Assembly: GCA_965223295.1 (NCBI GenBank)
Contig: CBDCWC010000002.1
Location: forward strand, 1,248,001-1,312,000
From: Nitrospirales bacterium
Lineage (GTDB): Bacteria; Nitrospirota; Nitrospiria; Nitrospirales; UBA8639
DNA length: 64,000 bases
Direction of reading: 5' to 3'
Shown: positions 30,371 to 56,151 of the stretch, piece by piece
How positions within the stretch are numbered: the first letter of the stretch is position 1
How the letters are laid out: every line of letters begins with the position of its first letter
Notes under the pieces: model-generated
Databases searched by the model: none
What the model saw: the letters and a program-made list of their open reading frames with translations, nothing else
Told to the model about the DNA's origin: nothing
Translations under genes and position numbers: made by a program

Positions 30371-30561
30371 GGGTCTGTTAAAAAAATCTGCCAGCGGCAT
30401 TCTTGCCATTGTTCCGTGCTCACGTACTGCCAGTACGCTCCGCGCGCAAAAATGGCTGTGGCCTTGCTGGCCGGACTTTTTTGAACCGACCCGACGCTCT
30501 TGCTTTCTAAGAGCTTCTTGGCGAAATACGTCTTTTGCTATCTTCATGATTCAACACTCCC
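30371..30561 (+). mobile_element. Tripartite MITE-like element, copy A
   Basis: GGGTCTGTTAAAAAA...core...TTTTTTGAACCGACC plus a 70-bp module ending TTCAACACTCCC; homologous to copies at 33023, 36890 and 55961. Confidence 0.85.
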
Positions 30562-30564
30562 ACA

Positions 30565-31578
30565 CTAATTGTCGGAAGCTTCGACGATATGATTTTCAAA
30601 TCTGGTACAGCCCTCGGCCAGTAAGCGATTCGTCAGCATTTCTCCCGGCCATTCAATAGGCAAATCAGCGGTAAAGACCCATACATCCGGCGATGTCCAT
30701 ATGGGGCCATGTTCTTCGGGAAGGTCCGGATCGAATAAATCTGTCCACACGGGCATATAGACTCCATTGCCGCATTGCGTATGAAGGTGTACCACTGTGC
30801 GGCTACGGATAGGGCCTTCCAAATCATGCCAAACTGCCGCGGTTTCATCAGCCAAGCGATGGAGACGCACAGCATTTTGCGCATCGAATAAAGCATAGGC
30901 GGCATAGTTGGGCGCTTCCAACATTTGCGGCGCCATCGCGATTTCAGAACATTGCGTCACCAATCCATCCATAATGGCCTGACAATCACTTTCCTGCAAC
31001 GTATCAGCCAACGTGGTATCCGGTACGCCCAAAATTTCAAAAAACAAGAAGGCCGTCGCCTCGACCGGAGGATGAAGACGAGCAGCGATGGCTTGCCGAC
31101 GTTGTCCTTCAGCCAAGTTCGTGATGTGATCATGGACTTTCTCTAAATTCAGAAAATCCAACGTGGTATCGGTCAGGAGACGCGGCTCAACTGTAATCGC
31201 AACCCCTTTTGGCATATGAAGATGTCTTCGCAAGAGATCTGCGGTCTCAATAGGATCAATTTTCAATTTCAAGGGAAAGTCCAAATTTGCTTGAAGAGGG
31301 AGTTCCAAGGAGGCGAGGATGGCAAACGTTTCCGCTTCTTCGTGTTCCGTGTCCATCACACCGCAACTGGCAGCTTCAGCCAACAGATCAAACAACCATT
31401 CCGCCATGTTCTCATCTAAGGCCGCAAGAACCGTCAGCACCTCATGTTCACGGTCCTGATCTAACAAGGCTTGCAGCACTTCGATCGCCAAACTGGGATC
31501 ACCATGTTCATGACGACGCGCATTGATAAGATGAATAAGATCACGTGTGAGAGGATCAGGACGATACCAACTAGACAT
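30565..31578 (-). CDS. Hypothetical acidic protein
   Basis: 337-aa ORF with natural composition; no motif recognised. Confidence 0.7.
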   Translation of the reverse strand: MSSWYRPDPLTRDLIHLINARRHEHGDPSLAIEVLQALLDQDREHEVLTVLAALDENMAEWLFDLLAEAASCGVMDTEHEEAETFAILASLELPLQANLDFPLKLKIDPIETADLLRRHLHMPKGVAITVEPRLLTDTTLDFLNLEKVHDHITNLAEGQRRQAIAARLHPPVEATAFLFFEILGVPDTTLADTLQESDCQAIMDGLVTQCSEIAMAPQMLEAPNYAAYALFDAQNAVRLHRLADETAAVWHDLEGPIRSRTVVHLHTQCGNGVYMPVWTDLFDPDLPEEHGPIWTSPDVWVFTADLPIEWPGEMLTNRLLAEGCTRFENHIVEASDN

Positions 31579-31683
31579 GAAAAGAGATGTCCTTTATTGA
31601 CGAGGATACGGAACGAAACGTGTGGACATATGCTGTTGAGGCTAGCAGCATTTTCCCATTACCAGAACCTCTTTGCCAACTTT

Positions 31684-32097
31684 TCATTCTCCTATAACTT
31701 TGACTAACACCCGCTTGCGGCGACGCCCATCAAATTCTCCATAAAAAATTTGCTCCCATGTACCAAAATCCAAGGCTCCGTTCGTAATCGCCACAACCAC
31801 TTCCCGCCCCATAATCTGCCGTTTGATATGCGCGTCGCCGTTATCCTCACCAGTCAGATTATGTTGATACTCATCCGCATGGGGAGCAAGCCGTTCAAGG
31901 AACCGTTCATAATCCTGCAACAGGCCTGATTCATCATCATTGATATACACACTGGCTGTAATATGCATGGCATTAACCAGCACCAGCCCCTCTTGGATGC
32001 CACTCTGCTCAACCACGCGTTCCACTTGTGGGGTGATATTCACAAACTCCCGCCGTGATTGTGTATGAAACCAGAGTTCTTCTCGATACGATTTCAT
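31684..32097 (-). CDS. yjbQ: YjbQ/UPF0047 family protein
   Basis: [14 protein letters not shown]...[20 protein letters not shown]. Confidence 0.9.
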
Positions 32098-32378
32098 GGG
32101 TATCCTTTTCTTCGAGTCTTTCAGCCGGAGCAGCCGTACTGGATTCTCGCTCACTGGAAACATCATTGCAAGTAGGAAGCTTTCATCTCGTTTTATCATT
32201 CACATATAGAGAATATCAGATGGTTGGAGGTTTGACAGAACCGCCAAGTGGTGGTAATAAAGTTAACCATTAGGTTATTTCCCTACGACAGTAATTTTTA
32301 CACCATTGCCAATACACTGACATATGCATGGGTCGCCATGCACATCGTGTCTTTCATTAGAAAAAGGAGGCAGGGCTC

Positions 32379-32888
32379 ATGACAGCCACGCTTGGAAACC
32401 TGTTTTCAGCAACACACCCGACAGGGGGTCACGTGCTGTTTGCCGAAGATTCCGATAAGGATTTAGATTTTGACGAAGGATTTGAAGAGGATGAACTCCA
32501 CCAATCCAAACCACCTTCACGGCGACCTCTTATGTGGATTCTCATCCTTCTCTTGCTGGCAGGCGTTGCCTATTGGGTGCTCAATAATCCAACAGGACAA
32601 ATGGGAAATTCTGGTTCCATGAATGCAGGAACAGACAGCTATTCAGCATCAACTGCCGAGACCATACAATCTCCTCTTTTCAGCGAAGATCAATTGGTGA
32701 TACTTGTCGAAAAAGCCGTACTCATGGGAGATCCCGCCAATACTCTCCCTGGCCCTCTCGTACAAGCTGGCGATCAATTGACGATTCTTGATGGAAGTTA
32801 TGAATCCCAAGGGTGGGTGTATTTGGTAAAAACAACCACGGGAAAAACAGGATGGATTCCCGGCGAGAAACTTAAGAGTCAGTCGTAA
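32379..32888 (+). CDS. Membrane-anchored protein with a C-terminal SH3-like domain
   Basis: Acidic N-terminal patch, single TM, C-terminal WVYLVKT..GKTGWIP; SD AGGAGG. Confidence 0.7.
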   Translation: MTATLGNLFSATHPTGGHVLFAEDSDKDLDFDEGFEEDELHQSKPPSRRPLMWILILLLLAGVAYWVLNNPTGQMGNSGSMNAGTDSYSASTAETIQSPLFSEDQLVILVEKAVLMGDPANTLPGPLVQAGDQLTILDGSYESQGWVYLVKTTTGKTGWIPGEKLKSQS

Positions 32889-33022
32889 GGAAACGATAAA
32901 GACTCAACACTCGAGTCCCATTCAAGCACCTAGTTGCTCTGACCTCAACCATCTTTTCATTCGACAATTCAGCCTACCACACACGACTTCTATCCAACTG
33001 ACAACCCACTCTATAACAGCGT

Positions 33023-33245
33023 GGGGCTGTTGAAAGAATCTACCAGCGATGTTCCCGGCCTTCGCCGTGGCGGCTTCGCGCAGGCAGGTCGTCATTTTTC
33101 TGTGCTCACGCAGTACCAGTAGCTCCGCGCGCAAAAATGCTATGGCCTTGCTGGATGAATTTTTTGGGACCGACCCGAAGCTTTTGATATCTGATGGGAA
33201 CATAAGCAAATTTGCTTTTGGTGTTTTGTATTATTCAACACTCCC
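33023..33245 (+). mobile_element. Tripartite MITE-like element, copy B, with a nested 34-bp repeat
   Basis: GGGGCTGTTGAAAG...TTCAACACTCCC; extra 34 bp at 33055-33088 relative to the other copies. Confidence 0.82.
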
Positions 33246-33314
33246 AGCATCGTCGTTCGACATTGAACCACTAGGAGCATCCTTGCTAGGGTGAAGTTGA
33301 GGGTTCATCGCATC

Positions 33315-34247
33315 ATGACCGTTTCAAATATCTCTTCGATTTCCAACCAGGATCCACAAACGCCAATGTCTCCGGACGACGCCCAACAACTCTGTACCGC
33401 TTATACAAAATCAAGTGGGAGTAATTTTTACTATTCGTTTCTGTTTCTCCCTCGTCAACGGCGGGAAGCCATGTATACCATTTATGCATTATGCCGAATG
33501 GTGGACAGTGCTGTGGATGACCCACCACCAGGGAGCAAGCCGCTAGAGGTCCTGGCAACTTGGCGAGAAGAAGTGTCCGCAGCCTACAAAGGTCAACCGA
33601 CCCTCCCCGCAACGATCAGTTTGGCTACACACCTGCAAGAGTTTGATATTCCCGAAGATTTAATTCAAGAACTTATCACAGGCGTCGAAATGGATTTAAC
33701 GATCAATCGCTACGAAACATTTTCGGATTTATACCCCTACTGTTACCGAGTGGCATCTGTGGTGGGATTAGTCTGTCTCAAAATTTTCAAAACAGAATCT
33801 CCCAAAGCGGAAGACTATGCTGAAAATTTGGGCATTGCTTTTCAACTTACGAATATGCTTCGCGACCTGTATAGCGATGCCCAAGAAAATCGCGTCTATC
33901 TGCCACAAGAAGACTTTCAGCGATTTGGTTATTCGGTCGAATCATTGCTCAACAAAGAATCATCTCCTGAACTCGTTGAATTCATGAAATTCCAATGTGC
34001 TCGAGCACACTCGTATTATCAGAAAGCCCAAGATGTCCTCAGCTCCCTCCCCGCCCCAGATCAAAAAGCGCTCGTTGTCGCGGAAATTATGCGAGGCGTT
34101 TACAGTACGATTCTTCACAAAATTGAGTCCCAAAACTATCCCATTTTTGGGCCCCGGACGCGAGTCTCGTCATTTCAACGTCTGGGCATTGCCTCAAACA
34201 TTTGGCTGCGCTCGTTGCTCACGCGACCTGTCGCCACATCCATGTGA
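33315..34247 (+). CDS. hpnD: Presqualene diphosphate synthase (squalene/phytoene synthase family)
   Basis: SGSNFYYSF, YCYRVASVVG, LGIAFQLTNMLRD, RVYLP; followed by an hpnE-like gene. Confidence 0.82.
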   Translation: MTVSNISSISNQDPQTPMSPDDAQQLCTAYTKSSGSNFYYSFLFLPRQRREAMYTIYALCRMVDSAVDDPPPGSKPLEVLATWREEVSAAYKGQPTLPATISLATHLQEFDIPEDLIQELITGVEMDLTINRYETFSDLYPYCYRVASVVGLVCLKIFKTESPKAEDYAENLGIAFQLTNMLRDLYSDAQENRVYLPQEDFQRFGYSVESLLNKESSPELVEFMKFQCARAHSYYQKAQDVLSSLPAPDQKALVVAEIMRGVYSTILHKIESQNYPIFGPRTRVSSFQRLGIASNIWLRSLLTRPVATSM

Positions 34248-35626
34248 CACGCCACGTTCTTCTACTCGGGAACAATCTCACCGGGCTGGTTACAGCCTAC
34301 CGGCTCGTCCACTATGGTTTTCGTGTCAGTATTATTGATACGCAATCTGATACTCCTTCCCGCATTCCCTCTAGACTCCGTCAAGAAGCAAAGAAACCAA
34401 GAGCAGCAGCACCTCTTTCTAGCCCTTACAACGACGGTTATCCTCTAATTTTGCACGGTTTTTATCAGGCCACATGGTCACTGCTACAGGAACTATGCTT
34501 TGAATGGCCATCACAGACTGCCCACGCTGTTTGTTTAGAATTTGGGAACCAGAACCTCGCAGAACCACGAATCCGGCTCCCCAAACCATCCCGGATAGCC
34601 TGGATGCATCCAATGAGGCCATTACTCTTCTTCAAAGGGCTTTCCTGGTCAGACCGCTGGAATATCATCAACCTCCTAGAAAAACAATGGGAAGAGAATC
34701 GCCTGACCGATTACCACCCTGATATCCAAAGCGCTGAAAGCTGGCTCATCGCCGCAAAACAGTCGGACCATAGTCGTACATACTTCTGGAATCCTTTGTG
34801 CCGGTTTTTTCTACATTGCAATCTCTCAGAAGCCTCCCTCAGTTCCTTCATTGAAGTCTTCTCGCGCTACTGGTTTGGGCAACCCATCGATGCTGCAACC
34901 TACCTGACGCTATACGAGACTTTGGAAAAACTGGAAACCCACCTACGGCAATGGCTCATCCACAAAGGAACTCGATTTCACATATCAACTGGAGCACTCA
35001 ATCTCCACACAAACAACGACGAGGTTCGAGCAATTGGGACAGCTGACGACAATCTTACGGCCTACGCCTATGTTTCAGCCCTGACCCCAAAGCATCTCTG
35101 TTCTCTACTCCCTGAACGCGCGTTGGCTCATTACGGGTATTTTTCCTCCTTAGCACACATACCAGAAGTTTATGGCTTAGCCGTTCGATTCACTGTCAAG
35201 AATACCCTTCTCCCTCCTCGGCTCATTCTTCACGCCGCTTCATTTGATTGGATTACCAGTCAACCAAATTCACAATCAGGTGAAGCTGAAACCATAATGA
35301 CCTGCGCCACACTTGAAGAACCTACTGTTCAACGTGATACCGAAGAACTCATCCACTATGCCTCGGCTTCTATAGAACATCTATTCAAACTGTCTCCAGG
35401 TCAAACCCTCGAATCCTCTCAACCTCAAATTATTCAGCATGCAGGTCCATTGTACCCATGCCAGCAAGGATCTCGAACCCATCGGCCCCTCCCCGAAACA
35501 CCCCTTTCCAATTTTTTTCTGGCTGGTCCTTGGACAGCTACCAGCCTTCCCGCTTCTATAGAAAGTACGATACAAAGCGCCAGCGCATGTGCACAGGCTG
35601 TGAGTTCAGCCTTCTACGGATCTTGA
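34244..35626 (+). CDS. hpnE: HpnE-like FAD-dependent oxidoreductase, divergent
   Basis: GTG start overlaps the hpnD stop; FWNPLC and C-terminal NFFLAGPWTATSLPASIESTIQS; N-terminal Rossmann motif degenerate. Confidence 0.65.
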   Translation: MTRHVLLLGNNLTGLVTAYRLVHYGFRVSIIDTQSDTPSRIPSRLRQEAKKPRAAAPLSSPYNDGYPLILHGFYQATWSLLQELCFEWPSQTAHAVCLEFGNQNLAEPRIRLPKPSRIAWMHPMRPLLFFKGLSWSDRWNIINLLEKQWEENRLTDYHPDIQSAESWLIAAKQSDHSRTYFWNPLCRFFLHCNLSEASLSSFIEVFSRYWFGQPIDAATYLTLYETLEKLETHLRQWLIHKGTRFHISTGALNLHTNNDEVRAIGTADDNLTAYAYVSALTPKHLCSLLPERALAHYGYFSSLAHIPEVYGLAVRFTVKNTLLPPRLILHAASFDWITSQPNSQSGEAETIMTCATLEEPTVQRDTEELIHYASASIEHLFKLSPGQTLESSQPQIIQHAGPLYPCQQGSRTHRPLPETPLSNFFLAGPWTATSLPASIESTIQSASACAQAVSSAFYGS

Positions 35627-35628
35627 GA

Positions 35629-35657
35629 TTGACATCCTTCCTCCTCAAACTTAAGAT
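35629..35657 (+). promoter_or_regulatory. Sigma70 promoter for udg, probably leaderless
   Basis: TTGACA-17 nt-TAAGAT ending 8 nt before ATG 35666. Confidence 0.65.
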
Positions 35658-35665
35658 CCCTAGCT

Positions 35666-36322
35666 ATGGATTTAGCTCAACTCAAAACTTCTCTACACAA
35701 TTGCCAGCGCTGTCAGCTCTCCAAAGGCCGAACCCAAGTCGTCTTTGGGACTGGGAACCCGGAGGCCTCTATCATGTTCGTGGGAGAAGCTCCTGGATTT
35801 TACGAAGACCGCCAAGGCGAACCCTTTGTAGGCGCTGCAGGGAAATTACTCACAGAGCTCTTACAATCAATCGGGCTCGAACGGACCGACATCTTTATTG
35901 CCAACGTCATCAAATGCCGTCCACCCAACAATCGCGATCCCTTACCCGAAGAAATCGAGACCTGCAAACCTTTTCTCCTTCAGCAAATTGAACTCATTCA
36001 GCCGAAGCTCGTCTGCACCTTAGGCAATTTCGCCACTCAAACATTGTTGGAAAGAAAAGTCGGCATCACCAAAGTCCGTGGACAGGTCATTAAACTCGAA
36101 AAATTCGTCGTCTTTCCATTATTCCATCCTGCTGCCGCCCTCCACCAAGGCAACCTGCGCGTGCCCCTCAAAGAAGATTTCCAAAAACTCAAAAACGTCC
36201 TGGTAGACATGAGCAAAACCCCAACTCTCCCCAACACCTCCTCACCTCCAACACTTACCACCTCAAAAGAATCCTCCAAAGAAACCCCAGCCAATCCCCC
36301 AACCCAAATGAGTTTGTTTTAG
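35666..36322 (+). CDS. Family-4 uracil-DNA glycosylase ([4Fe-4S])
   Basis: CQRC, GEAPG, KCRPP..R.P...EI..C, HPAA. Confidence 0.93.
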   Translation: MDLAQLKTSLHNCQRCQLSKGRTQVVFGTGNPEASIMFVGEAPGFYEDRQGEPFVGAAGKLLTELLQSIGLERTDIFIANVIKCRPPNNRDPLPEEIETCKPFLLQQIELIQPKLVCTLGNFATQTLLERKVGITKVRGQVIKLEKFVVFPLFHPAAALHQGNLRVPLKEDFQKLKNVLVDMSKTPTLPNTSSPPTLTTSKESSKETPANPPTQMSLF

Positions 36323-36531
36323 AAGAATACTTTCCAATAACAAGAGAACTCGCAAAGCATCGGAGCCACAAATTTTTCTTTGCGACTATCTGCGTAGTTC
36401 AAGTAGACCCACCTTCTGCGCCTCACAATTAATAATAAGTTTTTAGTGGTTTCTCTTTACATAAGACTACTTTCCGTTAAGAATAAAAAATATGCACCTA
36501 CGGAACCACACATCTCAACAATGGAGGTCAC

Positions 36532-36693
36532 ATGGACACAGGTTACCCCGCGCTCATCGCTGAACTCCCCGACAAAAAAAATAACTTAAAGATCCCCGCC
36601 GGCTCTCAGAATCCAGAGTCCAAAAATCTCCCAGCCACAAAAAATATCCCTGAAGAAACCAGCTCCCCTCCGACAACCAACACCCTTTCCTAA
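36532..36693 (+). CDS. Putative 53-aa small protein
   Basis: SD GGAGG 4 nt before ATG; MDTGYPALIAELPDKKNNLKIPAGSQNPESKNLPATKNIPEETSSPPTTNTLS*; below the ORF-track length cutoff. Confidence 0.4.
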   Translation: MDTGYPALIAELPDKKNNLKIPAGSQNPESKNLPATKNIPEETSSPPTTNTLS

Positions 36694-36732
36694 AATCCTT
36701 TCGTTTCATTGCTCAACTTCAGAACCCCCTAA

Positions 36733-36752
36733 AAGGGGTCAGAATCGATTAA
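36733..36752. repeat. Single arm of the GGGGTCAGACTCGATT palindromic element
   Basis: AAGGGGTCAGAATCGATTAA, one mismatch to the arms at 41691 and 43136. Confidence 0.6.
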
Positions 36753-36889
36753 CCACTGTGCATTGCCACACATTGCCCCATTCATGACCCTTGTGGTGCA
36801 GATGCTCTCACCGATAACATGCAAACACCTCTCTATTGTTTTAGACAGACTATTGCACCTATGCCTCACACGCATCATGATTCCCTCCA

Positions 36890-37080
36890 GGGTCTGTTGA
36901 AAAAAGCCGCCAGCGACGTTCTCTCCATTTTTCCGTGCTCACGTAGGACCAGTAGGTTCCGCGCGCAAAAATGGCTGCGGCCTTGCTGGACGGACTTTTT
37001 AGAACCGACCCGATACTGTTGATCGCCAAGGGCTTTCTGAAGAAAAATGATCTTTGATATCTTCATTATTCAACGCTCCC
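36890..37080 (+). mobile_element. Tripartite MITE-like element, copy C
   Basis: GGGTCTGTTGAAAAAAGCCGCCAGC...GCTGGACGGACTTTTTAGAACCGACC plus 70 bp ending TTCAACGCTCCC. Confidence 0.85.
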
Positions 37081-37132
37081 CTCCAATCTCTCATTTGTTC
37101 AATCTTGCATTCTTCGACCCATTTTCCCGATC

Positions 37133-39922
37133 ATGAAATTTCTGAAGTTTCTGGGCTGGTCAGCGGTTGGGCTTTTACTTCTCCTAGGATTAGCCTTTTG
37201 GTATCTCCCAATCTTGGCCAGTATGGCCATTACTCAGGGATTGACGAGCCAAGGATTTGAGAATGTCTCGGCGACTCTGGACTATCCCAGCACAACGACT
37301 CTGAAAATTCGTTCTCTCGCATTCGATTCGCCAACGAAATTCGGCTCAAATTCAATCCGCATTGAAAATACCGATATTACCTATTCTCTGGACTCTCTGT
37401 TGAACCGCATGGTGGAACGGGTGGAGATTGAACACATGGCAATTACTTGGGATTCTTCGCTACTGGAGGGAGATTCCTCCCAATCACCCTCGACAATCGA
37501 ATCTGATATTCCACTCGACTTGAGTAGCTTTGACTCTGGAATTCCGCTCCCAATCCTTCCCTTTCAGCATCTCCACATTCAACAAGCAGACATTTCTAAC
37601 CCTTTGGCACCGCCGGCGCTCAAAAAACTCTCACTCAATGCTACGATCGATGCGATAAAGGAAGGATATGAGGGAAACATGCGACTGAACGGAGAAGAGC
37701 TTCTGCTTAACTCCCTTTCTTTTTCACTGACCAAACAAGGTACGGTAGCTTTTCAGGGAACCCATACAAGCGCTCCAGAACACCGCCTTCTAGAATTAAA
37801 AACTTCGTTACATCAATCCAACTCGGGGCTAAGCCTTCAAGGCAAAACGCTTCTCAAGCTTCATCCTATTATTCACACGCTCTCCGCACTGCACCCACTT
37901 CCCCCACATTACCAAGACATCTCGGGAACCTTATCTGGGAAGTGGACAGGGGTAATCAATGAACAACCATCACCCACGGGTTCAGTCATCGGACCGATTC
38001 AGGGCAAGTTTTCCCTTGATGCTCAGGTACCTACTTGGCCCCCCTTTGCCCACAACATACAGCTTCAAACAAAAGGAACAGTGACTGTCACCAATGAACG
38101 TGCCATCCTGGCGGTTCAACCTTCATCCTCCGGCTCGGTTACCGTCGCAATGGGCTCTTTCATTCCGCCAGTGATCGACGCCTTCATCAGACATGACAAC
38201 CGCCGGTCCGTGGACTGGAACATTCGGAAACCCATTCATGTAGAGGTCCCGATACAGCAAAAGGTTGAGACGATCCGAATCTCCTCAGGAAACATTCACA
38301 TGGCCGTCAACAACGCCTCCGAACAATTGACCATGTTCCTTTCTCCCAAAGACCTTCTCTGGACCGCAACCAGCGGGGTTGCCGGCAAGGCTCATCTAAA
38401 GCTCAGTACCCAACTCACACCTGGTCCCACACCAACCTGGCACCCCGAAACACTGTTAATCGAGGCTGATGCTAGCATCATAGTATCGCCACAAGACATC
38501 ACTCTAGCTTTCAACTCCTCTTCTTATTTTCACTTTTCAGACATGAAACAGGAGAGCCTGTACGTCCCGACACTTGTTAGCCGCTTTCCAGAAGGGGCAT
38601 CTGCGACGTACCTGCTAGACAAGCGAATATTGACGGTGAGAACTGCCAGGTCAATTCTTTCTCTCCCGTCTGTTTTTATGAAAGATCAAGAATGGACCAT
38701 TCATAAAGTTTTCACCAAGGACCTTACCATCCAAAACACACCAGAGAGTTGGACCATCAATGGAAAGTCAGAGATAAAAAAAGTACATGTACCATTTGAC
38801 GCCATCAAAATCCCAGATTCAAATTGGCAAGCACGGTATTCAGTCAATCCCCAAACTTTGACGGCTTCCTTCAATGGACGAACACTTCAGCATCCCATAC
38901 GCATAGGTGGACAAGCCAAACTGAATCTTGAGAAAGAACAGGCCGTGATTGCAGTATCGATGAAGCCTCTTCTGTTGGCCCCAAAGACCCGAATTCTCAG
39001 CCAAATCATCCAGCCCTGGCCATTACGCGATATGGATGTCACTCACGGTACCATCTCGGCGTCTGCAAAAGTGTCCCTTGCCCAAAATCCAACTACCGCT
39101 GCCATCCCCTTTCACATCACACACCTGCATGGGATTCTCAACTTGAAAGACATCGGTGGATTTTTGAAACCCACTATCTTGGAAGGGTTTACGACGCGCA
39201 TTGAAGTTCTCGGCAACAATGATACATTCCATATTCCCCCCACCCCCCTACGCATACAACGCATTCTATCGGCCGTTGATTTGACCGACACCTCTTTTCT
39301 GCTGTCATCCGGAACTTTTCAGTTAGATTCTCCACCTTCGCTTTCTGTCAGCAATGTTTCCACGCATCTGCTAGGAGGAACCGTTGCCCTCTCGCAAGCC
39401 ACATACGATCCAGCACAGCCTGGTCAAAACTTAGCCTTAGAAGTCCAAGGGATGGATCTGAACGAGATACTCCTCCTGGAACAGCAAGAAACAGTAAAAG
39501 GCACAGGCACCCTTGACGGCCATCTACCCTTGTTTGTCTCTGGGACAGATGTAGAAATTCATGAAGGCACATTAACCGTCCGCCCACCAGGTGGTATCAT
39601 CCAGATGAACCTATCGGAAGACACAGCGGATAGTTGGTCCAAAAGCCAACCCCATTTAGATCTCATCGTCCAAAGCTTAGAAAATTTTCACTATTCCCAA
39701 TTGGACGTTGGTATCGATTACAACAAACATGGTATCCTGAAATTGGCAACGAAACTTAAAGGGAAAAATCCAGAATACCGCAATGGAGTGCCCATTCATT
39801 TCAACCTCAATATCGAAGAAGACATTCCCGCACTCTTGGAAAGCCTGTCACTCATCAAAAACCTGGAAGAAAAAATTGGCACAATGATGACAGGAGAAGA
39901 ACAATCATCAGAGGAACAGTAG
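37133..39922 (+). CDS. ydbH: YdbH-like (AsmA superfamily) intermembrane lipid transport protein
   Basis: N-terminal TM, beta-rich body, C-terminal G.LDG.LP...LENFHY...G.N...PIHFNLNIEEDI; followed by ynbE and ydbL. Confidence 0.8.
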   Translation: MKFLKFLGWSAVGLLLLLGLAFWYLPILASMAITQGLTSQGFENVSATLDYPSTTTLKIRSLAFDSPTKFGSNSIRIENTDITYSLDSLLNRMVERVEIEHMAITWDSSLLEGDSSQSPSTIESDIPLDLSSFDSGIPLPILPFQHLHIQQADISNPLAPPALKKLSLNATIDAIKEGYEGNMRLNGEELLLNSLSFSLTKQGTVAFQGTHTSAPEHRLLELKTSLHQSNSGLSLQGKTLLKLHPIIHTLSALHPLPPHYQDISGTLSGKWTGVINEQPSPTGSVIGPIQGKFSLDAQVPTWPPFAHNIQLQTKGTVTVTNERAILAVQPSSSGSVTVAMGSFIPPVIDAFIRHDNRRSVDWNIRKPIHVEVPIQQKVETIRISSGNIHMAVNNASEQLTMFLSPKDLLWTATSGVAGKAHLKLSTQLTPGPTPTWHPETLLIEADASIIVSPQDITLAFNSSSYFHFSDMKQESLYVPTLVSRFPEGASATYLLDKRILTVRTARSILSLPSVFMKDQEWTIHKVFTKDLTIQNTPESWTINGKSEIKKVHVPFDAIKIPDSNWQARYSVNPQTLTASFNGRTLQHPIRIGGQAKLNLEKEQAVIAVSMKPLLLAPKTRILSQIIQPWPLRDMDVTHGTISASAKVSLAQNPTTAAIPFHITHLHGILNLKDIGGFLKPTILEGFTTRIEVLGNNDTFHIPPTPLRIQRILSAVDLTDTSFLLSSGTFQLDSPPSLSVSNVSTHLLGGTVALSQATYDPAQPGQNLALEVQGMDLNEILLLEQQETVKGTGTLDGHLPLFVSGTDVEIHEGTLTVRPPGGIIQMNLSEDTADSWSKSQPHLDLIVQSLENFHYSQLDVGIDYNKHGILKLATKLKGKNPEYRNGVPIHFNLNIEEDIPALLESLSLIKNLEEKIGTMMTGEEQSSEEQ

Positions 39923-39998
39923 TATCTCTGCTTCAGCGATCACCCGTGACAGAATGCCGTTCAAAGCCATCGTTATATACTGCAGACAAGGGGACTTT

Positions 39999-41610: not shown

Positions 41611-41690
41611 TGCTTATAATCCTTTTAGGTCACATGTGGCATAGTCAAAAGACTTGTTGAATCCAAAAAATTCAGCAAGCACTTGCTTAT

Positions 41691-41770
41691 AAGGGGTCAG
41701 ACTCGATTAAATTTCACCTTTTGCTCTGTAGCGAAGTGATGTTTGTTGAATTTATCGAGTCTGACCCCTT
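41691..41770 (+). repeat. 80-bp palindromic REPIN/MITE-like element, copy 1
   Basis: AAGGGGTCAGACTCGATTAAATT-spacer-AATTTATCGAGTCTGACCCCTT. Confidence 0.9.
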
Positions 41771-43135: not shown

Positions 43136-43216
43136 AAGGGGTCAGACTCGATTAAATTCAACAAACATCACTTCGCTACAGAGCAAAAGGTAAAATTTAA
43201 TCGAGTCTGACCCCTT
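43136..43216 (-). repeat. 81-bp palindromic element, copy 2, inverted relative to copy 1
   Basis: Reverse complement matches 41691-41770 except one substitution and one indel. Confidence 0.9.
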
Positions 43217-43232
43217 AAAACAGGAAACTGGA

Positions 43233-47483: not shown

Positions 47484-47512
47484 TTGACAAGAATCTTATT
47501 CATTATTAGACT
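47484..47512 (+). promoter_or_regulatory. Sigma70 promoter for the uppS operon
   Basis: TTGACA-17 nt-TAGACT. Confidence 0.65.
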
Positions 47513-47607
47513 GAATTTGTTCACAAATCTCTTATGTTTGTGAATGAATCGATTCCCCCTATACGGATTCCGGCTTTTACCTCGACACGTAACGTTCTGC
47601 GTCTTTC

Positions 47608-48393: not shown

Positions 48394-48470
48394 AGGTTCT
48401 GAGATTTCACGATCAAACCCTATCTTCCCTCATTTCTTCTAACTCCCGCGTTTCTCCATCGGTCCCCTCT

Positions 48471-49277: not shown

Positions 49278-49313
49278 TGCCTTTGTAATTCCAAGAAAAA
49301 GGACATCGGCTTC

Positions 49314-50480
49314 GTGAAACGTATCATCATTTTGGGGTCAACTGGCTCAATAGGGGCTAGTACATTAGACGTGGTGTCACAATTTCCGGATCATTTTCAA
49401 ATTGTCGGATTAGCGGCGGGATCAAATGATCAAATCTTAGAAGACCAGATTCGGACGTTCCAACCAAAAATTGTCGCGTTGTCTTGTCCCGATGCCGCCA
49501 ACCGATTACGCACACGCATTCATTCCACCCAAGCTGAAATCTTAGAGGGCGAACCCGGCCTCTGTGATGTGGCAAGCTTCCCAGACTGTGATTTAGTGAT
49601 CTCGGCCATCGTCGGTGGTGCAGGCCTCAAGCCCACGCTTTCGGCTATTCAAGCTGGCAGACAAGTGGCCCTGGCGAATAAAGAACCCATGGTCATGGCC
49701 GGGCAACTCATGCAGCACGAAGCCAACAAGCATGGCGTCACCATTTTCCCCATCGATAGCGAGCATAGTGCAATTTTTCAATCTATGGAAGGACACCGAA
49801 AAATAGATATTCGTCGGGTGGTCCTTACTGCCTCGGGTGGGCCGTTTTGGGACTGGCCTGCAGCCGACCTTGAACATGTCAGCACAGAACAAGCCCTTAA
49901 ACATCCTAACTGGAAAATGGGAGCGAAAATTACCATTGATTCCGCAACACTTATGAATAAGGGGCTTGAAGTAATTGAAGCCCGATGGCTCTTTGACCTT
50001 CCACCGAACCAAATCGATGTGGTGGTTCACCGGGAAAGCATCATTCATTCTTTGGTAGAATATTGTGATGGATCGGTCATCTCGCAATTGGGACATCCAG
50101 ATATGCGTACACCAATTTCCTATGCTATGCACTATCCGGAGCGGGTTCCCCTTTATCCGCCACTGTTGGATTTAGGTCAGATTGGGAAACTTACGTTTTC
50201 GCCGCCGGATACCGAAAAGTTTCCTTGTCTACAGTTGGCCTATGACGCCCTAGCTGGAGGAGCTGGACTCCCAGCAACACTCAATGCCGCTAATGAAGTG
50301 GCAGTCCAAGCCTTCCTCAAGAACCAGATTGCATTTTTGGATATTCCAAAAATTATTCAAGAAACTATGACGGCATATTCACCAACACCATTATCAACGA
50401 TTGAAGACGTGTTGGACATCGACCAATGGGCTCGTCGAACGGCTGAAGATATCATGAAGACCTGCGTCGCACCTGCATAA
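49314..50480 (+). CDS. dxr: 1-deoxy-D-xylulose-5-phosphate reductoisomerase
   Basis: LGSTGSIG, ALANKE, PIDSEH, HPNWKMG. Confidence 0.97.
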   Translation: MKRIIILGSTGSIGASTLDVVSQFPDHFQIVGLAAGSNDQILEDQIRTFQPKIVALSCPDAANRLRTRIHSTQAEILEGEPGLCDVASFPDCDLVISAIVGGAGLKPTLSAIQAGRQVALANKEPMVMAGQLMQHEANKHGVTIFPIDSEHSAIFQSMEGHRKIDIRRVVLTASGGPFWDWPAADLEHVSTEQALKHPNWKMGAKITIDSATLMNKGLEVIEARWLFDLPPNQIDVVVHRESIIHSLVEYCDGSVISQLGHPDMRTPISYAMHYPERVPLYPPLLDLGQIGKLTFSPPDTEKFPCLQLAYDALAGGAGLPATLNAANEVAVQAFLKNQIAFLDIPKIIQETMTAYSPTPLSTIEDVLDIDQWARRTAEDIMKTCVAPA

Positions 50481-50511
50481 CCCTAAATGATTGTTTGACG
50501 GCAAAATATTT

Positions 50512-51906
50512 ATGAATAGCCTCTCTTTGTTCTCTCCAGACGCAATATACATTTTTGGACAAAAACTCTGGTGGTTTTTGATTGTATTAGGCGTGCTGGT
50601 TACATTCCATGAATACGGCCATTACTTAGCTGCTCGTTGGGTCGGCGTGAAAGTCCTCAAATTTTCAATAGGATTTGGTCCACGCTTGGTAGGCCGCCAA
50701 GTTGGCGATACCGAATATGTGGTATCTGCGATACCTCTCGGAGGCTATGTCAAGATGTTTGGAGAGGAAGGTGGAGAAACCATTTCCGCTGAGGACCAAA
50801 AGGGCTCTTTCCTCCATCAGTCCCTGCCGCATAAAACACTCATCGTGGCAGCTGGACCTGGGTTCAACTTTATTCTTAGCTATCTCATTTTTACCGGCAT
50901 GTTAGCATTTGGCTCGCCACTCTTCGTCCCGAATATTGACAAAATGCTTCCTGTGGTCGAAGCCATCACACCCGACTCCCCTGCTGCACTTTCTGGATTA
51001 GAGCTCGGAGATCGTATTACCCGAGTCAACGAAGAAGAGATCTCAACGTTAGGAGAATTGTATCAGATTATTGATAAAACCCATGGCCGCCCAGTCACAT
51101 TGGATGTCATGCGCAGGGACAAGATTAAGACCTTTATTATCACGCCAACCACTCAGGAGAATAAGAGTAACTCTGAAGACGAACCCATTTATCTACTTGG
51201 CATCGAAGATCATGTGCCAAAGATCGGGAAAGTCATGCCCGGCACGCCGGCTAAGGCTTCAGGGCTTCAAGCAGATGATCGAATTACTCAAATCAATGAC
51301 ACGCCGATTGTCACATGGTCTCAGATGACGGATATTATTCAGAAAAGCGCAGGGGTGCCACTTGAAGTACACATAGAGCGAAAAGGAGCCCCTCTGACCC
51401 TTTCGGTGACCCCGAAAGCCCACACCCTTACGCAACCTGACGGAGAGAGCCGAGCCATTGGCCGCATTGGCATTCAAATTTCTGGACGGGGAACCATCTT
51501 ACAAAGCTCCGAATGGTATCTGGCTCCATGGCAAGGCTTACAAGCCACCTGGGATTGGTGCAAACTCACGGTGCTCGGGATAGCCAAATTGGTGACAGGA
51601 GAAATTTCTTCAAAAAATATAGGCGGGCCTTTAATGATCGCCAGCGTTTCAGGAGAGCATGGCGAACAGGGCTTTGGTGCGATCTTGTGGCTTATTGCCA
51701 TTCTCAGCATTAATTTAGGCATTTTAAATTTATTACCCATTCCTGTCTTGGATGGCGGCCATCTCTTCTTTTTTGCCTGCGAAGCCATCCTAGGCCGCCC
51801 ATTACAAGAACGTTCACGGGAAATGGCCCAACAAGCCGGGATCATCCTGTTATTCTGTCTGATGGGTTTTGCCTTCTGGAACGACATTAATCGCCTGCTT
51901 CAATAG
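50512..51906 (+). CDS. rseP: RIP metalloprotease RseP with two PDZ domains
   Basis: HEYGH, AGP, NLLPIPVLDGG. Confidence 0.95.
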   Translation: MNSLSLFSPDAIYIFGQKLWWFLIVLGVLVTFHEYGHYLAARWVGVKVLKFSIGFGPRLVGRQVGDTEYVVSAIPLGGYVKMFGEEGGETISAEDQKGSFLHQSLPHKTLIVAAGPGFNFILSYLIFTGMLAFGSPLFVPNIDKMLPVVEAITPDSPAALSGLELGDRITRVNEEEISTLGELYQIIDKTHGRPVTLDVMRRDKIKTFIITPTTQENKSNSEDEPIYLLGIEDHVPKIGKVMPGTPAKASGLQADDRITQINDTPIVTWSQMTDIIQKSAGVPLEVHIERKGAPLTLSVTPKAHTLTQPDGESRAIGRIGIQISGRGTILQSSEWYLAPWQGLQATWDWCKLTVLGIAKLVTGEISSKNIGGPLMIASVSGEHGEQGFGAILWLIAILSINLGILNLLPIPVLDGGHLFFFACEAILGRPLQERSREMAQQAGIILLFCLMGFAFWNDINRLLQ

Positions 51907-51990
51907 ATCTCTCCTCTAAAACCGGTCAAACATTATCTGTTGATGACTTCTCAAAACTGTGTGCGTTCCATTTGGTAAAGTGGACTATTT

Positions 51991-53715
51991 ATGAGACTTT
52001 CAGAATCGTTTATTCCCACCTTACGACAAGATCCCGGCGAAGCCGAAGTCATCAGCCACCGCTTGATGCTGCGTGCCGGCATGATTCGAAAAGTCGCCGC
52101 GGGCATCTATTCGTATCTGCCATTAGGCCTGCGAGTCATTCGAAAGATCGAAACAATCGTTCGAGAAGAAATGAATCGAGCCGGAGCCCAAGAGCTCTTA
52201 CTGCCGATCCTTTCACCCGCCGAACTATGGGAAGAAACCGGACGTTGGGACTTCTATGGCAAAGAACTTGTGCGGTTACAGGATCGCCATGAACGAGACT
52301 TTTGCTTAGGGCCCACACATGAAGAAGTCATCACCGACTTGTTCCGGCGAGAAGTACGTTCCTATCGGCAACTACCACTCATTCTCTATCAAATTCAAAC
52401 GAAGTTTCGTGATGAAATTCGCCCGCGATTTGGACTAATGCGGGGAAGAGAATTCATCATGAAAGATGCCTACAGTTTTGACCAGCATGAGAGGGATGCA
52501 AAGCACAATTATCAAAAGATGTACGACGCTTATTGTCGAATTTTTACACGTACAGGACTACAATTTCGTCCCGTTGAGGCTGACACCGGGCTTATTGGAG
52601 GTATTTCCTCACATGAGTTTATGGTGTTAGCCAATACCGGCGAAGAACTTATTGTCTTCGATCCTGAAAGCTCCTATGCCGCAAATGTCGAACGCGCAGA
52701 AGTCATCCCTTCGAAAACCAATGAAATCGAAGAACTCAAGCCATTAGAAAAAGTCGCAACCCCTCGAGCCAAATCAGTTGAAGACCTGTGCACAGCTCTC
52801 AACATTCCCTCACATCGTGTCGTTAAAACTCTGTTATACGAAACCGGAGACAAGGAGATTACCGCCGTGTTAATCCGCGGCGACCACCAGGCAAACGAAA
52901 TAAAAATTCAGCGGCATTTAGGCCTGCATGATATCTCTTTAGCGTCACCCGAACTGGTGGCAAAAGTGACGGCCGCACCGGTTGGCTTCGTTGGACCAGT
53001 GGGACTGTCAAACGTGAAGATTTTGGCTGACCATGCAGTCAGTGCCCTTGCCAACTTAGTCGTAGGAGCCAACGAACAAGATTTTCATTTCACGAACGTG
53101 AACCCGGAAAGAGATTTTACCATTCAAGATATTGGAGATTTCCGACAAGCTCAGGCCGGGGATCCGTCCCCCAATGGCGGTGGACCGCTTCAAACGGCCC
53201 GAGGCATTGAAGTTGGTCATGTCTTCATGCTAGGCACCAAGTATAGCGAAAAGATGGGTGCGACGTATCTTGATGCCGAGAGCCAAAGTCATCCCGCCAT
53301 CATGGGTTGTTACGGAATTGGCATCGGACGAACCGCAGCAGCAGCCATCGAGCAGAACCATGATGAACACGGTATTTGCTGGCCCATGCCCATCGCTCCT
53401 TTTCAAGCGCAAATTCTTCCAGTGACAAATTCTGACGCGGTCCGTGTGGCATCCGAAAAATTATATAAGGAGTTAGGGAAACACAATCTTGAAGTTTTGC
53501 TAGATGACCGAAACGAGCGAGGTGGGGTGAAATTTAAGGATGCCGACATGATTGGTATACCCTATCACATCATTATTGGTGATAAAGGATTGGCGACTAA
53601 CACTATCGAAATCAAAGATCGAAAAACTGGAGAAAAAGTCCTTCTCTCACCAGAGCAAGTGACCGACTGGATCAAAAATAGAGTGACAGAACAGCTTAGA
53701 TATCAAAACTCATGA
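51991..53715 (+). CDS. proS: Proline-tRNA ligase
   Basis: LGPTHEE, FRDEIRPRFGLMRGREF, MGCYGIG; internal editing domain. Confidence 0.97.
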   Translation: MRLSESFIPTLRQDPGEAEVISHRLMLRAGMIRKVAAGIYSYLPLGLRVIRKIETIVREEMNRAGAQELLLPILSPAELWEETGRWDFYGKELVRLQDRHERDFCLGPTHEEVITDLFRREVRSYRQLPLILYQIQTKFRDEIRPRFGLMRGREFIMKDAYSFDQHERDAKHNYQKMYDAYCRIFTRTGLQFRPVEADTGLIGGISSHEFMVLANTGEELIVFDPESSYAANVERAEVIPSKTNEIEELKPLEKVATPRAKSVEDLCTALNIPSHRVVKTLLYETGDKEITAVLIRGDHQANEIKIQRHLGLHDISLASPELVAKVTAAPVGFVGPVGLSNVKILADHAVSALANLVVGANEQDFHFTNVNPERDFTIQDIGDFRQAQAGDPSPNGGGPLQTARGIEVGHVFMLGTKYSEKMGATYLDAESQSHPAIMGCYGIGIGRTAAAAIEQNHDEHGICWPMPIAPFQAQILPVTNSDAVRVASEKLYKELGKHNLEVLLDDRNERGGVKFKDADMIGIPYHIIIGDKGLATNTIEIKDRKTGEKVLLSPEQVTDWIKNRVTEQLRYQNS

Positions 53716-53968
53716 AAAAGGCTCAGCCAAAAGGTCAACTCGTCTATTTACCTCTATCTTTCTAGAATTTTCATGAGAATTCGTTCACGATTACGACCCC
53801 ATTTAATGTGCCTTTCGTGTATACTATCTTATGTATTCAGGGACTTCTGAACCAGGAGCAATTTTTCTCGCAGAACCTCAGCTGTTCATTGACGAATCCT
53901 TGAAGTAGATGGTACCCTTCAAGGTTGAATTTCCTAAAGAATATCAGCATGTTGAGAACAAGTTATCC

Positions 53969-54424
53969 ATGTTAAATCAAATGAATGTTCGGGGACTTCT
54001 TTTTGACCCCTACAACAATGCGTATATCGTCATCCTCCGCGATGAGCAACATTCGGACATGCTGCCCATCTGGGTGGGAAAGTCCGAGGCCAGTGCGATT
54101 AGCTTCGCTCTTGAAAAAATTGCACCTCCTCGGCCCATGACCCATGATCTCATGAAAACCTTGTTGGATAATATGGATGCCAAAGTTATCAGTACAGTCA
54201 TCACCGACCTCAAAGAGAATACCTATTTTGCCAAAATTCATTTGCTGTTTGGTGACTCTGAATTCACCATTGATTCACGCCCCAGTGATGCCATCGCCGT
54301 CGCCCTTCGCACGGAAGCGCCTATCTTCGCCTCTGGTGAAGTCTTACACAAACAGAACTCCGAAGAATTGGAACGGTGGCTTGAAAATCTTAAGCCTGAA
54401 GACTTTGGAAAACCTGATGCGTAG
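53969..54424 (+). CDS. Bifunctional nuclease (DUF151), paralog 1
   Basis: LPIWVG, PRPMTHDL, DSRPSDAIA. Start at ATG 53969. Confidence 0.9.
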   Translation: MLNQMNVRGLLFDPYNNAYIVILRDEQHSDMLPIWVGKSEASAISFALEKIAPPRPMTHDLMKTLLDNMDAKVISTVITDLKENTYFAKIHLLFGDSEFTIDSRPSDAIAVALRTEAPIFASGEVLHKQNSEELERWLENLKPEDFGKPDA

Positions 54425-54465
54425 AAGAGATTTTTTCATCTGATCTATCAACGAGTTTACCTGTG

Positions 54466-54936
54466 ATGGCTGAAACAGATACGCTTATTTCATTAAAAGT
54501 TCATGGGGTGTTAGTGGATCCTAACACCGACACGCAAATTGTTGTCTTACGGGACGAGCAAAACTCTGAAGTCTTGCCCATCTGGGTGGGCACGGCAGAG
54601 GGAACATCCATACGGCTCGCTCTTGAAAATGTCATCCCGCCACGTCCCATGAGCCATGATTTAATCTGTAGCTTTACTTCATATCTTGGATTTACGCTTA
54701 ATAAAGTCGTAATTACTGAAGTCAAGAATAATACCTATTTTTCCACCTTGTGCTTATCAAAAGATGATCTGGAAAAATCCATAGACTCCCGTCCCAGCGA
54801 TGCCATTGCTCTAGCCGTTCGTTGCCAATGCCCAATTTATGTCACCCCGGAGGTATTGGAGCAACGCGGTGGCGAAGATCTGGATACATGGCTCTCGAAA
54901 CTTGACCAAAAGGGAACGGAACAACCGGAAACCTAA
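54466..54936 (+). CDS. Bifunctional nuclease (DUF151), paralog 2
   Basis: LPIWVG, PRPMSHDL, DSRPSDAIA. Confidence 0.9.
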   Translation: MAETDTLISLKVHGVLVDPNTDTQIVVLRDEQNSEVLPIWVGTAEGTSIRLALENVIPPRPMSHDLICSFTSYLGFTLNKVVITEVKNNTYFSTLCLSKDDLEKSIDSRPSDAIALAVRCQCPIYVTPEVLEQRGGEDLDTWLSKLDQKGTEQPET

Positions 54937-54985
54937 ATTTCTACCATACTGAATTTTCGACAGTTGGAAAGGACATGTCAGGCTC

Positions 54986-55414
54986 ATGCGATCATTTCAA
55001 GCAAAGCCCTTAGAGGTTGAACGAAAATGGTTTGTCGTTGATGCGGCGGGAAAAACCGTTGGCCGTTTGGCGACGCAGGTCGCGTCTATTCTCCGCGGCA
55101 AGCATAAACCTATTTTCACTCCGAATGTAGACACAGGCGATCACGTCGTCATCATCAATTCAAGCCAAGTACAGTTTACCCGTAATAAATTTCGCGACAA
55201 AATTTATTACCATCATACAGGGTATCCAGGTGGGATAAAGGCTATATCTGCAGAACACCTCCATGCAAAAAAACCAACAGAAGTTTTATCCAAAGCCATA
55301 CGAGGCATGCTGCCAAAATGTACGTTGGGTAAACAAATGGCCAAGAAACTTCGAATTTATAGTGGAGCCGAACACCGACACCAAGCTCAAAATCCCACTC
55401 CGTTGAACCTCTAA
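54986..55414 (+). CDS. rplM: 50S ribosomal protein L13
   Basis: [27 protein letters not shown]. Confidence 0.98.
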
Positions 55415-55457
55415 GTAACGTGATGCTCTTAGCGTAAAAAGGAGAGAGAGTTCTATT

Positions 55458-55850
55458 ATGGTAGACACTGTTCAGTATGCAACTGGAAAAAAGAAATATG
55501 CTATTGCCCGTGCCTGGATTGAACCTGGGCAGGGAAACATTCACATCAATTCCCGGTCGTTAGAAGACTATTTCCCTCGATTATCCCATCAAATTCAAGT
55601 CCAGACGCCTTTTGAAGTCACTAAAACGGAAGGGCAGTTTAATGTGAAAGCCTCTCTTTCCGGTGGCGGGATTTCAGGCCAGGCTGGTGCTCTTCGCCAT
55701 GCCATTGCCAAAGCCTTATCTTTACATGACGCTTCCTTACGTGACCCACTCAAAAAACAGGGCTTACTGACACGTGACTCTCGCGTCAAAGAACGGAAAA
55801 AGTATGGACAAAAAGGAGCACGGGCAAAGTTCCAATATTCTAAACGTTAA
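55458..55850 (+). CDS. rpsI: 30S ribosomal protein S9
   Basis: GGGISGQAGA, LTRDSRVKERKKYG, QYSKR. Confidence 0.98.
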   Translation: MVDTVQYATGKKKYAIARAWIEPGQGNIHINSRSLEDYFPRLSHQIQVQTPFEVTKTEGQFNVKASLSGGGISGQAGALRHAIAKALSLHDASLRDPLKKQGLLTRDSRVKERKKYGQKGARAKFQYSKR

Positions 55851-55887
55851 TTCCTCGACTTCAACAAGAATATTTTTCAGAATGTGT

Positions 55888-55918
55888 AAGGGGAGGTTGC
55901 CACAACCTCCCCTTTTTT
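55888..55918 (+). terminator. Intrinsic terminator after rpsI
   Basis: AAGGGGAGGTTG-CCA-CAACCTCCCCTT followed by a T-run. Confidence 0.85.
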
Positions 55919-55960
55919 GATGGCTGGCGCAACTAGACCGACATGTCATTCAACATGAAT

Positions 55961-56151
55961 AGGACTGTTGAGTAATGATGATATCAACGACCACATTTAG
56001 CCTCTGAGGCAGAACATGTCAGAAGGGTCGGGGCTGTTCAAAAAAGTCCGTCCAGCAAGGCCGCAGCCATTTTTGCGCGCGGAGCGTACTGGTCCTACGT
56101 GAACACGAAAAAATGGCGAGAACGCCGCTGGCGGCTTTTTTCAACAGACCC
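55961..56151 (-). mobile_element. Tripartite MITE-like element, copy D, reverse orientation
   Basis: Reverse complement aligns end to end with copies A and C. Confidence 0.85.

Follow-up and report, generated by a model that had tools for sequence, protein, structure and literature searches.

A miniature inverted-repeat element of Nitrospirales couples a conserved palindromic core to a variable arm of near-constant length and is probably mobilised in trans by an IS5/IS1182-type transposase

The window analysed here is a 64,000-nucleotide stretch of the genome of a Nitrospirales bacterium (assembly GCA_965223295.1, contig CBDCWC010000002.1, positions 1,248,001 to 1,312,000 of the forward strand), and the subject is a short non-coding repeat that it carries as four full copies and one solo module. 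The full unit of ~191 bp comprises a left tip, a 121-nt core (A), a 54-nt interior and a 16-nt outer tip, the last two together forming a 70-nt module (B). The elements are located between unrelated housekeeping genes, and their neighbours in the window encode a PHP-domain protein, a UPF0047 protein, phytoene/squalene synthase, an amine oxidase, UDG, a YdbH-like protein, rpsI, a semialdehyde dehydrogenase, a hydrolase and cobQ. A sequence-only reading of the window had placed four full copies and a solo module within it, and direct reading together with profile search recovers them at exactly the same positions. Profile hidden Markov models built from genomic copies detect no further copy in the 64-kb window, and a repeat search also returns the window copies as families of direct and inverted repeats. 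The parts of these copies are as follows.

8173..8242, minus strand: solo module B, 70 nt, subfamily B2 (65/70 to the B2 consensus)
30371..30491, plus strand: core A of copy 1, a 121-nt imperfect palindrome (nhmmer match to A positions 1-121, E 3.5e-37)
30492..30561, plus strand: module B of copy 1, 70 nt, subfamily B1 (58/70 to the B1 consensus)
33023..33175, plus strand: core A of copy 2, 153 nt including a 32-nt palindromic insertion (profile search and reading)
33176..33245, plus strand: module B of copy 2, 70 nt, subfamily B3 (61/70 to the B3 consensus)
36885..36889, plus strand: left target-site duplication of copy 3, CTCCA, 5 bp (read from the sequence)
36890..37010, plus strand: core A of copy 3, 121 nt (profile search and reading)
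37011..37080, plus strand: module B of copy 3, 70 nt, subfamily B1 (61/70 to the B1 consensus)
37081..37085, plus strand: right target-site duplication of copy 3, CTCCA (read from the sequence)
55956..55960 and 56152..56156, minus strand: perfect duplication ATTCA of copy 4 (read from the sequence on the minus strand)
55961..56030, minus strand: module B of copy 4, 70 nt, subfamily B2 (58/70 to the B2 consensus)
56031..56151, minus strand: core A of copy 4, 121 nt (profile search and reading)

The element begins with GGG(T/G)CTGTT(G/A)AAA, and the two halves of the core that follows are inverted copies of each other. At the far side of the core an inner inverted end reads …TTTTTTGAAC.GACCC, and the next 70 nt end in TTCAAC.(C/G)TCC. 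Copy 1 illustrates this plan, with the left tip GGGTCTGTTAAA, the inner inverted end on the 3' side of the core, and a module that terminates in the outer tip TTCAACACTCCC. The left tip is GGGTCTGTTGAA and the 16-nt outer tip is ATTATTCAACACTCCC; in the consensus of 209 copies the terminal inverted repeats are conserved, the left end GGGTCTGTTGAA and the reverse-complemented right end GGGAGTGTTGAA matching at 10/12 positions. The inner end is a third copy of the tip, situated at the end of the palindrome's right arm, and it carries C at position 10 where both active outer tips, as well as the tips of the two types of insertion sequence (IS) described below, carry G. This C10 is found in the consensus here and in 6/6 elements read by eye in five other genomes (L187-L194), and the asymmetry persists in lineages with entirely different tip sequences. 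All five window modules measure 70 bp, as had been counted from the sequence, and the anchors then listed for them (CGA at positions 1-3, TG at 10-11, AAAT at ~33-36 and T.G at 44-46) reappear in the consensus over five subfamilies and several genomes.

Two of the window copies show how this plan varies. The 32-nt insertion of copy 2 (33050-33085) is a recurrent GC-rich palindromic sub-module, present in other genomic copies either as an insertion (cores of 153-155 nt) or as a replacement of the core centre (short cores of ~85 nt), which makes the family a mosaic built from three or more modules. Beside the solo module, the core remnant amounts to ~6 nt (CAGACC) of the core's right end. The stop and last codons of a cobQ-like open reading frame (ORF; 8231-9802, minus strand) fall inside this solo module (8231-8242), and the decayed element thus supplies the end of the cobQ-like gene.

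The genome comprises 3.78 Mb in three contigs, across which nhmmer returns 359 matches to the core and 245 to the module, far more than chance would give; the elements occupy 322 separate stretches totalling 54,699 bp, or 1.45% of the genome. Merging the two-strand matches of the palindrome yields 291 distinct core loci. Complete ends are present in 187 of these, with the outer-tip motif downstream in 172, and at most 4/187 complete cores are truly without a module. The outer motif lies at an offset of 54 from the core in 143 loci and of 53 in 18. The module is exactly 70 nt in 174/192 full-length B matches, while the core is exactly 121 nt in 130/248, with variation of +-1 in many copies; this looser core length is due to four homopolymer runs and recurrent insertion/deletion variants.

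The 5-mers that flank A+B are identical in 109/209 full copies, against 1.2 expected from shuffled right flanks, and agree with at most one mismatch in 154/209, against 9 expected from shuffling. A+T content at the individual five target positions ranges over 68-79%. Within the window, the flanks of copy 1 (ACTTT / ACACT) match poorly, the duplication being degraded, and those of copy 2 (AGCGT / AGCAT) are 4/5 identical. Downstream of the core, the left-flank 5-mer recurs at 70 nt in 78 cases, at 69 nt in 12 and at 71 nt in 10, and never at 0; a control 5-mer gives no distance peak. The transposed unit is therefore the whole of A+B, never the core by itself, around which the 5-bp AT-rich duplication is not found. 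In the congeneric genome G046, the site orthologous to copy 3 lacks the element and has a single CTCAA in place of the two CTCCA sequences that bracket it in the window, a comparison of occupied and empty states that covers this one site. Short-read contigs end in repeats, and no empty-site joint is found among them.

Duplications also delimit the shorter and longer forms of the element, confirming the left end in 102/238 module matches. The total lengths confirmed in this way are 69 nt (five minis), 122 nt (three), 146-157 nt, 187-195 nt (68), 224-226 nt (eight) and a few longer ones. The 69-nt minis have perfect duplications and match an A+B unit from which the segment separating two CTGTTGA direct repeats is missing.

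The tips of the element belong to an autonomous IS. Four congeneric genomes (G124, with two copies, G288, G286 and G152) carry an IS of 1226-1229 bp, bounded by GGGACTGTTGAA(T/G)AA … ATTATTCAACA(G/C)TCCC, whose ends are the tips of the repeat, including the last 16 nt of the module. The flanks of four of its copies were read: three show perfect 5-bp duplications (TCAAT, TATAG and CTCAA), and the fourth, CTAAT / CTCAT, matches at 4/5. This IS contains a 328-aa ORF with DUF772 and DDE_Tnp_1 domains, which in one G124 copy occupies L295:964-1950 on the minus strand. A second IS type, 1316 bp long, is found in the genome G024, a member of a family (f2) in which the repeat follows the same plan with other tips. 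Its perfect 16-nt repeats, CAGGCTGCGGAAAAAC, are the outer tip of the f2 element, its duplication is TTAG, and its 342-aa transposase scores 278.9 bits against NCBIfam IS5_4 (cut-off 140). Both transposases (G024 and G124) score above the Pfam cut-offs for DUF772 and DDE_Tnp_1, and distant relatives of the G024 protein occur in 9/31 own-genus genomes (protein search).

These observations point to a miniature inverted-repeat transposable element (MITE) whose copies are mobilised in trans by a DDE transposase (DUF772 + DDE_Tnp_1) of the IS5/IS1182 superfamily, a reading to which we give a probability of about 0.85. The MITE-like tripartite anatomy perceived from the sequence was right, and the idea that the module might be a recombination site is borne out by its last 16 nt, which are the terminal inverted repeat of the IS in congeneric genomes. 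A transposase sharing the ends, which that reading had suggested looking for, is present in those congeneric IS copies and not in the element's own genome. There, protein and domain searches find no gene for the congeneric-type transposase, and no element of 0.3-12 kb combines the MITE tips with a perfect duplication; the ~300 copies are therefore orphans decaying in place.

Several resident genes were considered as parents and rejected. The IS6-type gene at C3:448303 has different ends, a 475-aa IS1182-type element has different repeats and no 5-bp duplication, and three multi-copy rve-type IS have TG... ends; PF13546 has no match in this genome. The rve-type IS (C2:749701, C2:765162 and C2:866644) are 1200-1244 bp long and present in 7, 5 and 4 copies that are mostly 99.8-100% identical. 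Unlike the decayed MITE copies, they are recently active.

A miniature element derived from Tn3 (TIME) and dependent on a transposase of the Tn3 family would share some of these features. GGG tips and a 5-bp AT-rich duplication are what passages of PMC4133298 describe for TIMEs, together with conserved ends, a less conserved core and a size kept constant despite divergence, and one Tn3-family element in a confamilial genome (L162) matches the inner end over its first 11 nt. The same passages, however, give TIMEs 38-bp Tn3-type repeats, Tn3-family transposases and a mostly single-copy distribution, whereas the present element has 16-nt tips, left and right ends that are alike over only ~12-17 nt, and hundreds of copies per genome (~300 here), and its exact tips belong to the 1.23-kb IS with the 328-aa DUF772 + DDE_Tnp_1 protein. 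PF01526 has 0 matches in the element's own genome, and only 12/151 genomes of the order have one. Seven Tn3-gene loci were inspected in relatives and the ends of five were read, with no match beyond 11 nt, and a search for loci related to one relative's Tn3-family transposase found none. A Tn3 origin is accordingly very improbable.

The sequence-only reading had described the module middles as hypervariable between copies. Over positions 13-47 the five window modules do share only 14-25/35 positions pairwise, and this appearance of saturation arises because they comprise two B1 modules (copies 1 and 3), one B3 (copy 2) and two B2 (copy 4 and the solo module). Genome-wide, pairwise identity over the 209 full copies is 0.65 for the module and 0.82 for the core. 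Three types account for 179/209 copies (B1 98, B2 61 and B3 20), the rest being minor types such as B4, which is 68-69 nt long, sits on a core variant and has an outer tip lying nearer by 1 nt. Copies of one subfamily have diverged to the same extent in the two parts (distances of 0.18-0.22 for B and 0.16-0.26 for A), so that core and module decay alike after insertion. Between the B1 and B2 consensuses, by contrast, 2/121 core positions and 21/54 interior positions differ, and between B3 and either of them 6/121 and 24-28/54 (Fisher P ~1e-10 for the contrast of A with B between consensuses); the last 16 nt of the module differ at 1-2/16. Between subfamilies, then, change in the module interior has been roughly tenfold that in the core, without any net gain or loss of length. 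For a given core, the nearest neighbour has a module of the same type in 65% of cases, where 42% would be expected, and core and module are therefore inherited together. Module variability is thus a difference among a few subfamily lineages and not a process acting on each copy. A module diverging no more than the core had been named at the outset as the pattern that would count against a special module; it is found within subfamilies, while between them the module is far more changed.

This pattern also bears on the proposal that the module is a guide or spacer slot attached to a structured small RNA, and on the related possibility of a repetitive extragenic palindromic (REP) or bacterial interspersed mosaic element (BIME) repeat serviced by a Y1 (RAYT) transposase. 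A long conserved hairpin does adjoin a variable stretch, and the genome has five Y1_Tnp genes. The module nevertheless exists as a small number of types, each in dozens of copies, RNAalifold detects no consensus base pairing within it (76 whole elements; 14 modules of the f2 family), and an element copy used as query has no plasmid or phage match, the variable middles alone not having been searched separately. Clear terminal repeats and target duplications, lacking in REPs, are present here, and no element is closer than 1855 nt to a Y1 gene. We give almost no credence to either version. In Rfam 15, the window has no match at the gathering score except two cobalamin riboswitches, and copy 3 has none at E<=1. 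These two aptamers (RF00174; 2286-2481, minus strand, 88.6 bits, and 5765-5953, minus strand, 65.8 bits) lie upstream of a region that also holds the cobQ-like gene (8231-9802, minus strand).

The element extends well beyond this genome. An exact 28-mer of the left arm occurs at no fewer than 113 loci (>=113), almost all in assemblies titled Nitrospira or Nitrospirales; among the loci listed, the module is present in 96/113 and is 70 nt long in 50/57 full-length matches. Other genomes carry further 70-nt module types beside a nearly identical core (alignment of 76 elements), and the five largest module types are all 70 nt, having in common sparse anchors and the 16-nt tip. Taking this and other genomes together, the outer motif lies at offset 54 in 222/275 loci, 53 in 28 and 55 in 7. 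The element is found in 104/151 Nitrospirales genomes sampled, in 19/27 genera and in 16/16 genomes of its own genus. In a phylum-wide sample the core was detected in families f1, f2 and f5 and not in the remaining families searched. A literature search on Nitrospira MITEs and repetitive palindromic elements found no paper describing this repeat, and as far as that search shows it constitutes a previously undescribed MITE superfamily of Nitrospirales.

In elements of other genera, read directly, and in family f2 the same plan recurs with a different left tip, CAGGATGC(G/T)GAAAAAG, and an outer tip ending in …TTTTTCCGCAGCCTG. A homologous 123-nt core with an inner inverted end is again followed by a module, and the whole is flanked by a 4-bp YTAR duplication, mostly CTAG. 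Three f2 genomes were parsed with strict patterns, so the loci left unparsed in the counts below are truncated or variant copies that these patterns miss.

G024: 21/30 loci parsed; module 76 nt in 19 and 77 nt in 2; 4-bp duplication equal in 16/21
G045: 17/30 loci parsed; module 76 nt in 9 and 72-77 nt in 15, with two large deletions; duplication equal in 10/17
G001: 9/30 loci parsed; module 76-77 nt in 7; 4-bp duplication equal in 5/9

The G024 modules span at least five unrelated-looking sequence types. Among copies with modules of exactly 76 nt, pairwise identity of the module interior averages 0.61 in G024 (n=18), falling as low as 0.26-0.29, and 0.54 in G045 (n=9), with core identities of 0.95 and 0.89, respectively. 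The combination of a conserved core with a fixed-length but variable arm thus characterises the superfamily as a whole.

Whether module length is under constraint is a separate matter from whether the element is a MITE. In one explanation, which rivals only this spacing component, all subfamilies go back to a single ancestor of 70 nt, indels being rare relative to substitutions in this lineage. When 188 decayed modules are aligned to the consensus of their subfamily, 60 indel events are counted for 1659 substitutions, a ratio of 0.036 in which the indel count includes some paired gaps from mis-assigned minor types; the 18/192 off-length matches give ~0.0125. At such rates, five 70-nt master lineages separated by ~86 substitutions on their tree would be expected to carry 1-3 indels, with P(none) ~0.05-0.3. 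Lengths other than 70 nt occur in 35/189 loci here, 8/17 parsed G045 modules are not 76 nt, as such a neutral rate predicts, and the deep subfamily B4 has its outer tip displaced by 1 nt. All of these weaken the case for spacing. On the other side, tight length recurs independently in several genomes and families (offset 54 in 222/275 loci; 76 nt in 19/21 G024 copies), is kept in G024 across at least five types despite the low interior identity, and is accompanied by conserved anchors that stay at fixed module positions. Length constancy is therefore only marginally beyond the neutral expectation. The earlier statement that an indel-free length is not what neutral decay gives was overstated in view of P(none), although the saturation of the interior between subfamilies with no net length change did hold. 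Descent with rare indels has close to an even chance of being the full explanation; a spacing constraint is plausible from the recurrence of tight lengths and the fixed anchors, but it is not required by the data and is put forward tentatively, at somewhat less than even odds.

The core, rather than the module, shows signs of maintained structure. Its hairpin is 92.7% paired over 76 elements, and 11 pairs are changed on both sides against 5.4 +- 1.3 in shuffles, with 0/500 shuffles as high; controls in which the core was slid give 9-38 doubly changed cells against 48 observed. This shows that the palindrome is maintained, and relatedness and palindrome-templated mutation could contribute. Around its exact midpoint the module shows a weak dyad symmetry (39% complementarity, compared with ~23% when slid), mainly from a short central dyad, and TTGAT-like anchors occupy module positions 9-13 and 44-48. 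The reverse strand of B1 and B2 opens with a Shine-Dalgarno-like GGGAG and an ATG; a coding reading of the module was rejected on the stops in module types of other genomes (translated by eye) and on the +-1 length polymorphism of the core.

Such structure raises the possibility that the host has taken over the core, alone or together with the module, either as a hairpin that stabilises or terminates transcripts or as a site for a nucleoid or regulatory protein. Its presence across 104/151 genomes and 19/27 genera of the order, its persistence through changes of tips and duplication length between lineages, the compensatory changes that keep the hairpin, and the small dyad centred exactly mid-module are all consistent with this. 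Palindrome-templated mutation can, however, mimic compensatory change, and the copies in this genome decay freely, to ~20% pairwise divergence. Genome-wide, crude ORF calls place 65 vs 42 elements in the two orientations between tandem genes (P 0.03), 33 between convergent and 32 between divergent genes, which amounts to no strong preference among intergenic types and a weak orientation bias. Promoter- and terminator-like sites at elements are not above shuffled counts, and Rfam offers no match. Host co-option is, on balance, quite unlikely. Adjoining copy 4, just after rpsI, a perfect GC-rich hairpin followed by a T-run (55890-55920, read on the plus strand) looks like an ordinary intrinsic terminator, separate from the element. 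Elsewhere in the window, 68-nt inverted repeats at 41687-41754 and 43153-43220, 97% complementary and 1398 nt apart, with a related 30-nt direct repeat at 41751 and 43197, look like the ends of another small mobile element.

Several points weigh against the MITE reading. Firstly, the very strong conservation of all 121 core positions across an order exceeds what a transposase-binding site usually needs. Secondly, MITE and IS ends can be aligned only over the first 16-17 nt at either end, and signature sequences of the core are absent from both IS types; with no likeness to the IS beyond the tips, the element is not a simple internal-deletion derivative. Thirdly, assignment of the transposase to the IS5 or IS1182 family is tentative, since the G124 protein scores 127.3 bits against the IS5_4 cut-off of 140 and 160.3 against the IS1182 cut-off of 270 (NCBIfam). 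The five core-less 69-nt minis may be in-place deletions and so do not prove that the core is dispensable. Finally, mobility is deduced from the duplications and the single empty site.

In a different reading, the core is an order-wide functional DNA or RNA hairpin that has been switched between at least two transposase specificities, with the disabled inner end and the fixed-length, free-sequence arm kept throughout. One specificity has CAGG... tips and a YTAR duplication of 4 bp, another GGG.CTG... tips and a duplication of 5 bp. This is unlikely, yet were it true, the three-part geometry would itself be selected, for example as a cruciform or hairpin hinge at a set distance from one active tip; alternatively, the host would use the hairpin and tolerate its spread.

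Under the preferred reading, a MITE mobilised in trans, the transposase of a congeneric-type IS would move A+B by way of the shared tips. In the copies that act as masters, strong purifying selection for the ability to transpose would preserve core and tips, while the interior of the module would drift. The inner tip would be kept disabled by C10, which would ensure that palindrome and module always move together. Common descent and a low indel rate would account for the near-constant length of the module (70 nt here and 76-77 nt elsewhere), and a geometric or spacing requirement between the palindrome and the active tip in the transposition complex is a possible added cause. That core and tips change roughly ten times more slowly among masters is, in our view, the result of selection for competence to transpose; the main alternative is that the hairpin serves the host.

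The repeat resembles bacterial MITEs derived from IS of the IS5 superfamily: it is short, non-coding and present in hundreds of copies, its tips are identical to those of an autonomous IS, its duplication has a fixed length, insertions are polymorphic between related genomes, and orphan copies persist without a transposase. It differs in that only the 16-nt tips are held in common with the IS, in that its body is a conserved 121-nt palindrome with a third, altered tip followed by a fixed-length arm, and in that this plan and core persist across an order while tips and duplication (5 bp or 4-bp YTAR) follow the local IS. Modular intergenic repeats with long hairpins are abundant in other bacteria, as BOX elements in pneumococci, BIMEs in enterobacteria and Correia elements in Neisseria. 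Like these, the present family arranges recurring sub-modules in several combinations (69, 122, ~155, 187-195 and 224-226 nt), but its tips are clearly those of a transposon, it is flanked by target duplications, and its autonomous partner has been identified.

The element does not found a new category, and a guide-RNA or regulatory system is not indicated. It is the dominant interspersed repeat of the nitrite-oxidising Nitrospirales: every copy interrupts short-read assemblies, numerous sites for rearrangement are provided, and elements can come to lie inside the ends of genes, as in the cobQ-like ORF. The superfamily also offers a natural series in which the same core, not derived from an IS, and the same plan are combined with two related transposases that differ in their ends and duplication length. 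Its subfamilies, moreover, differ almost only in the fixed-length arm, and the series makes the question of what a MITE needs besides its tips directly testable.

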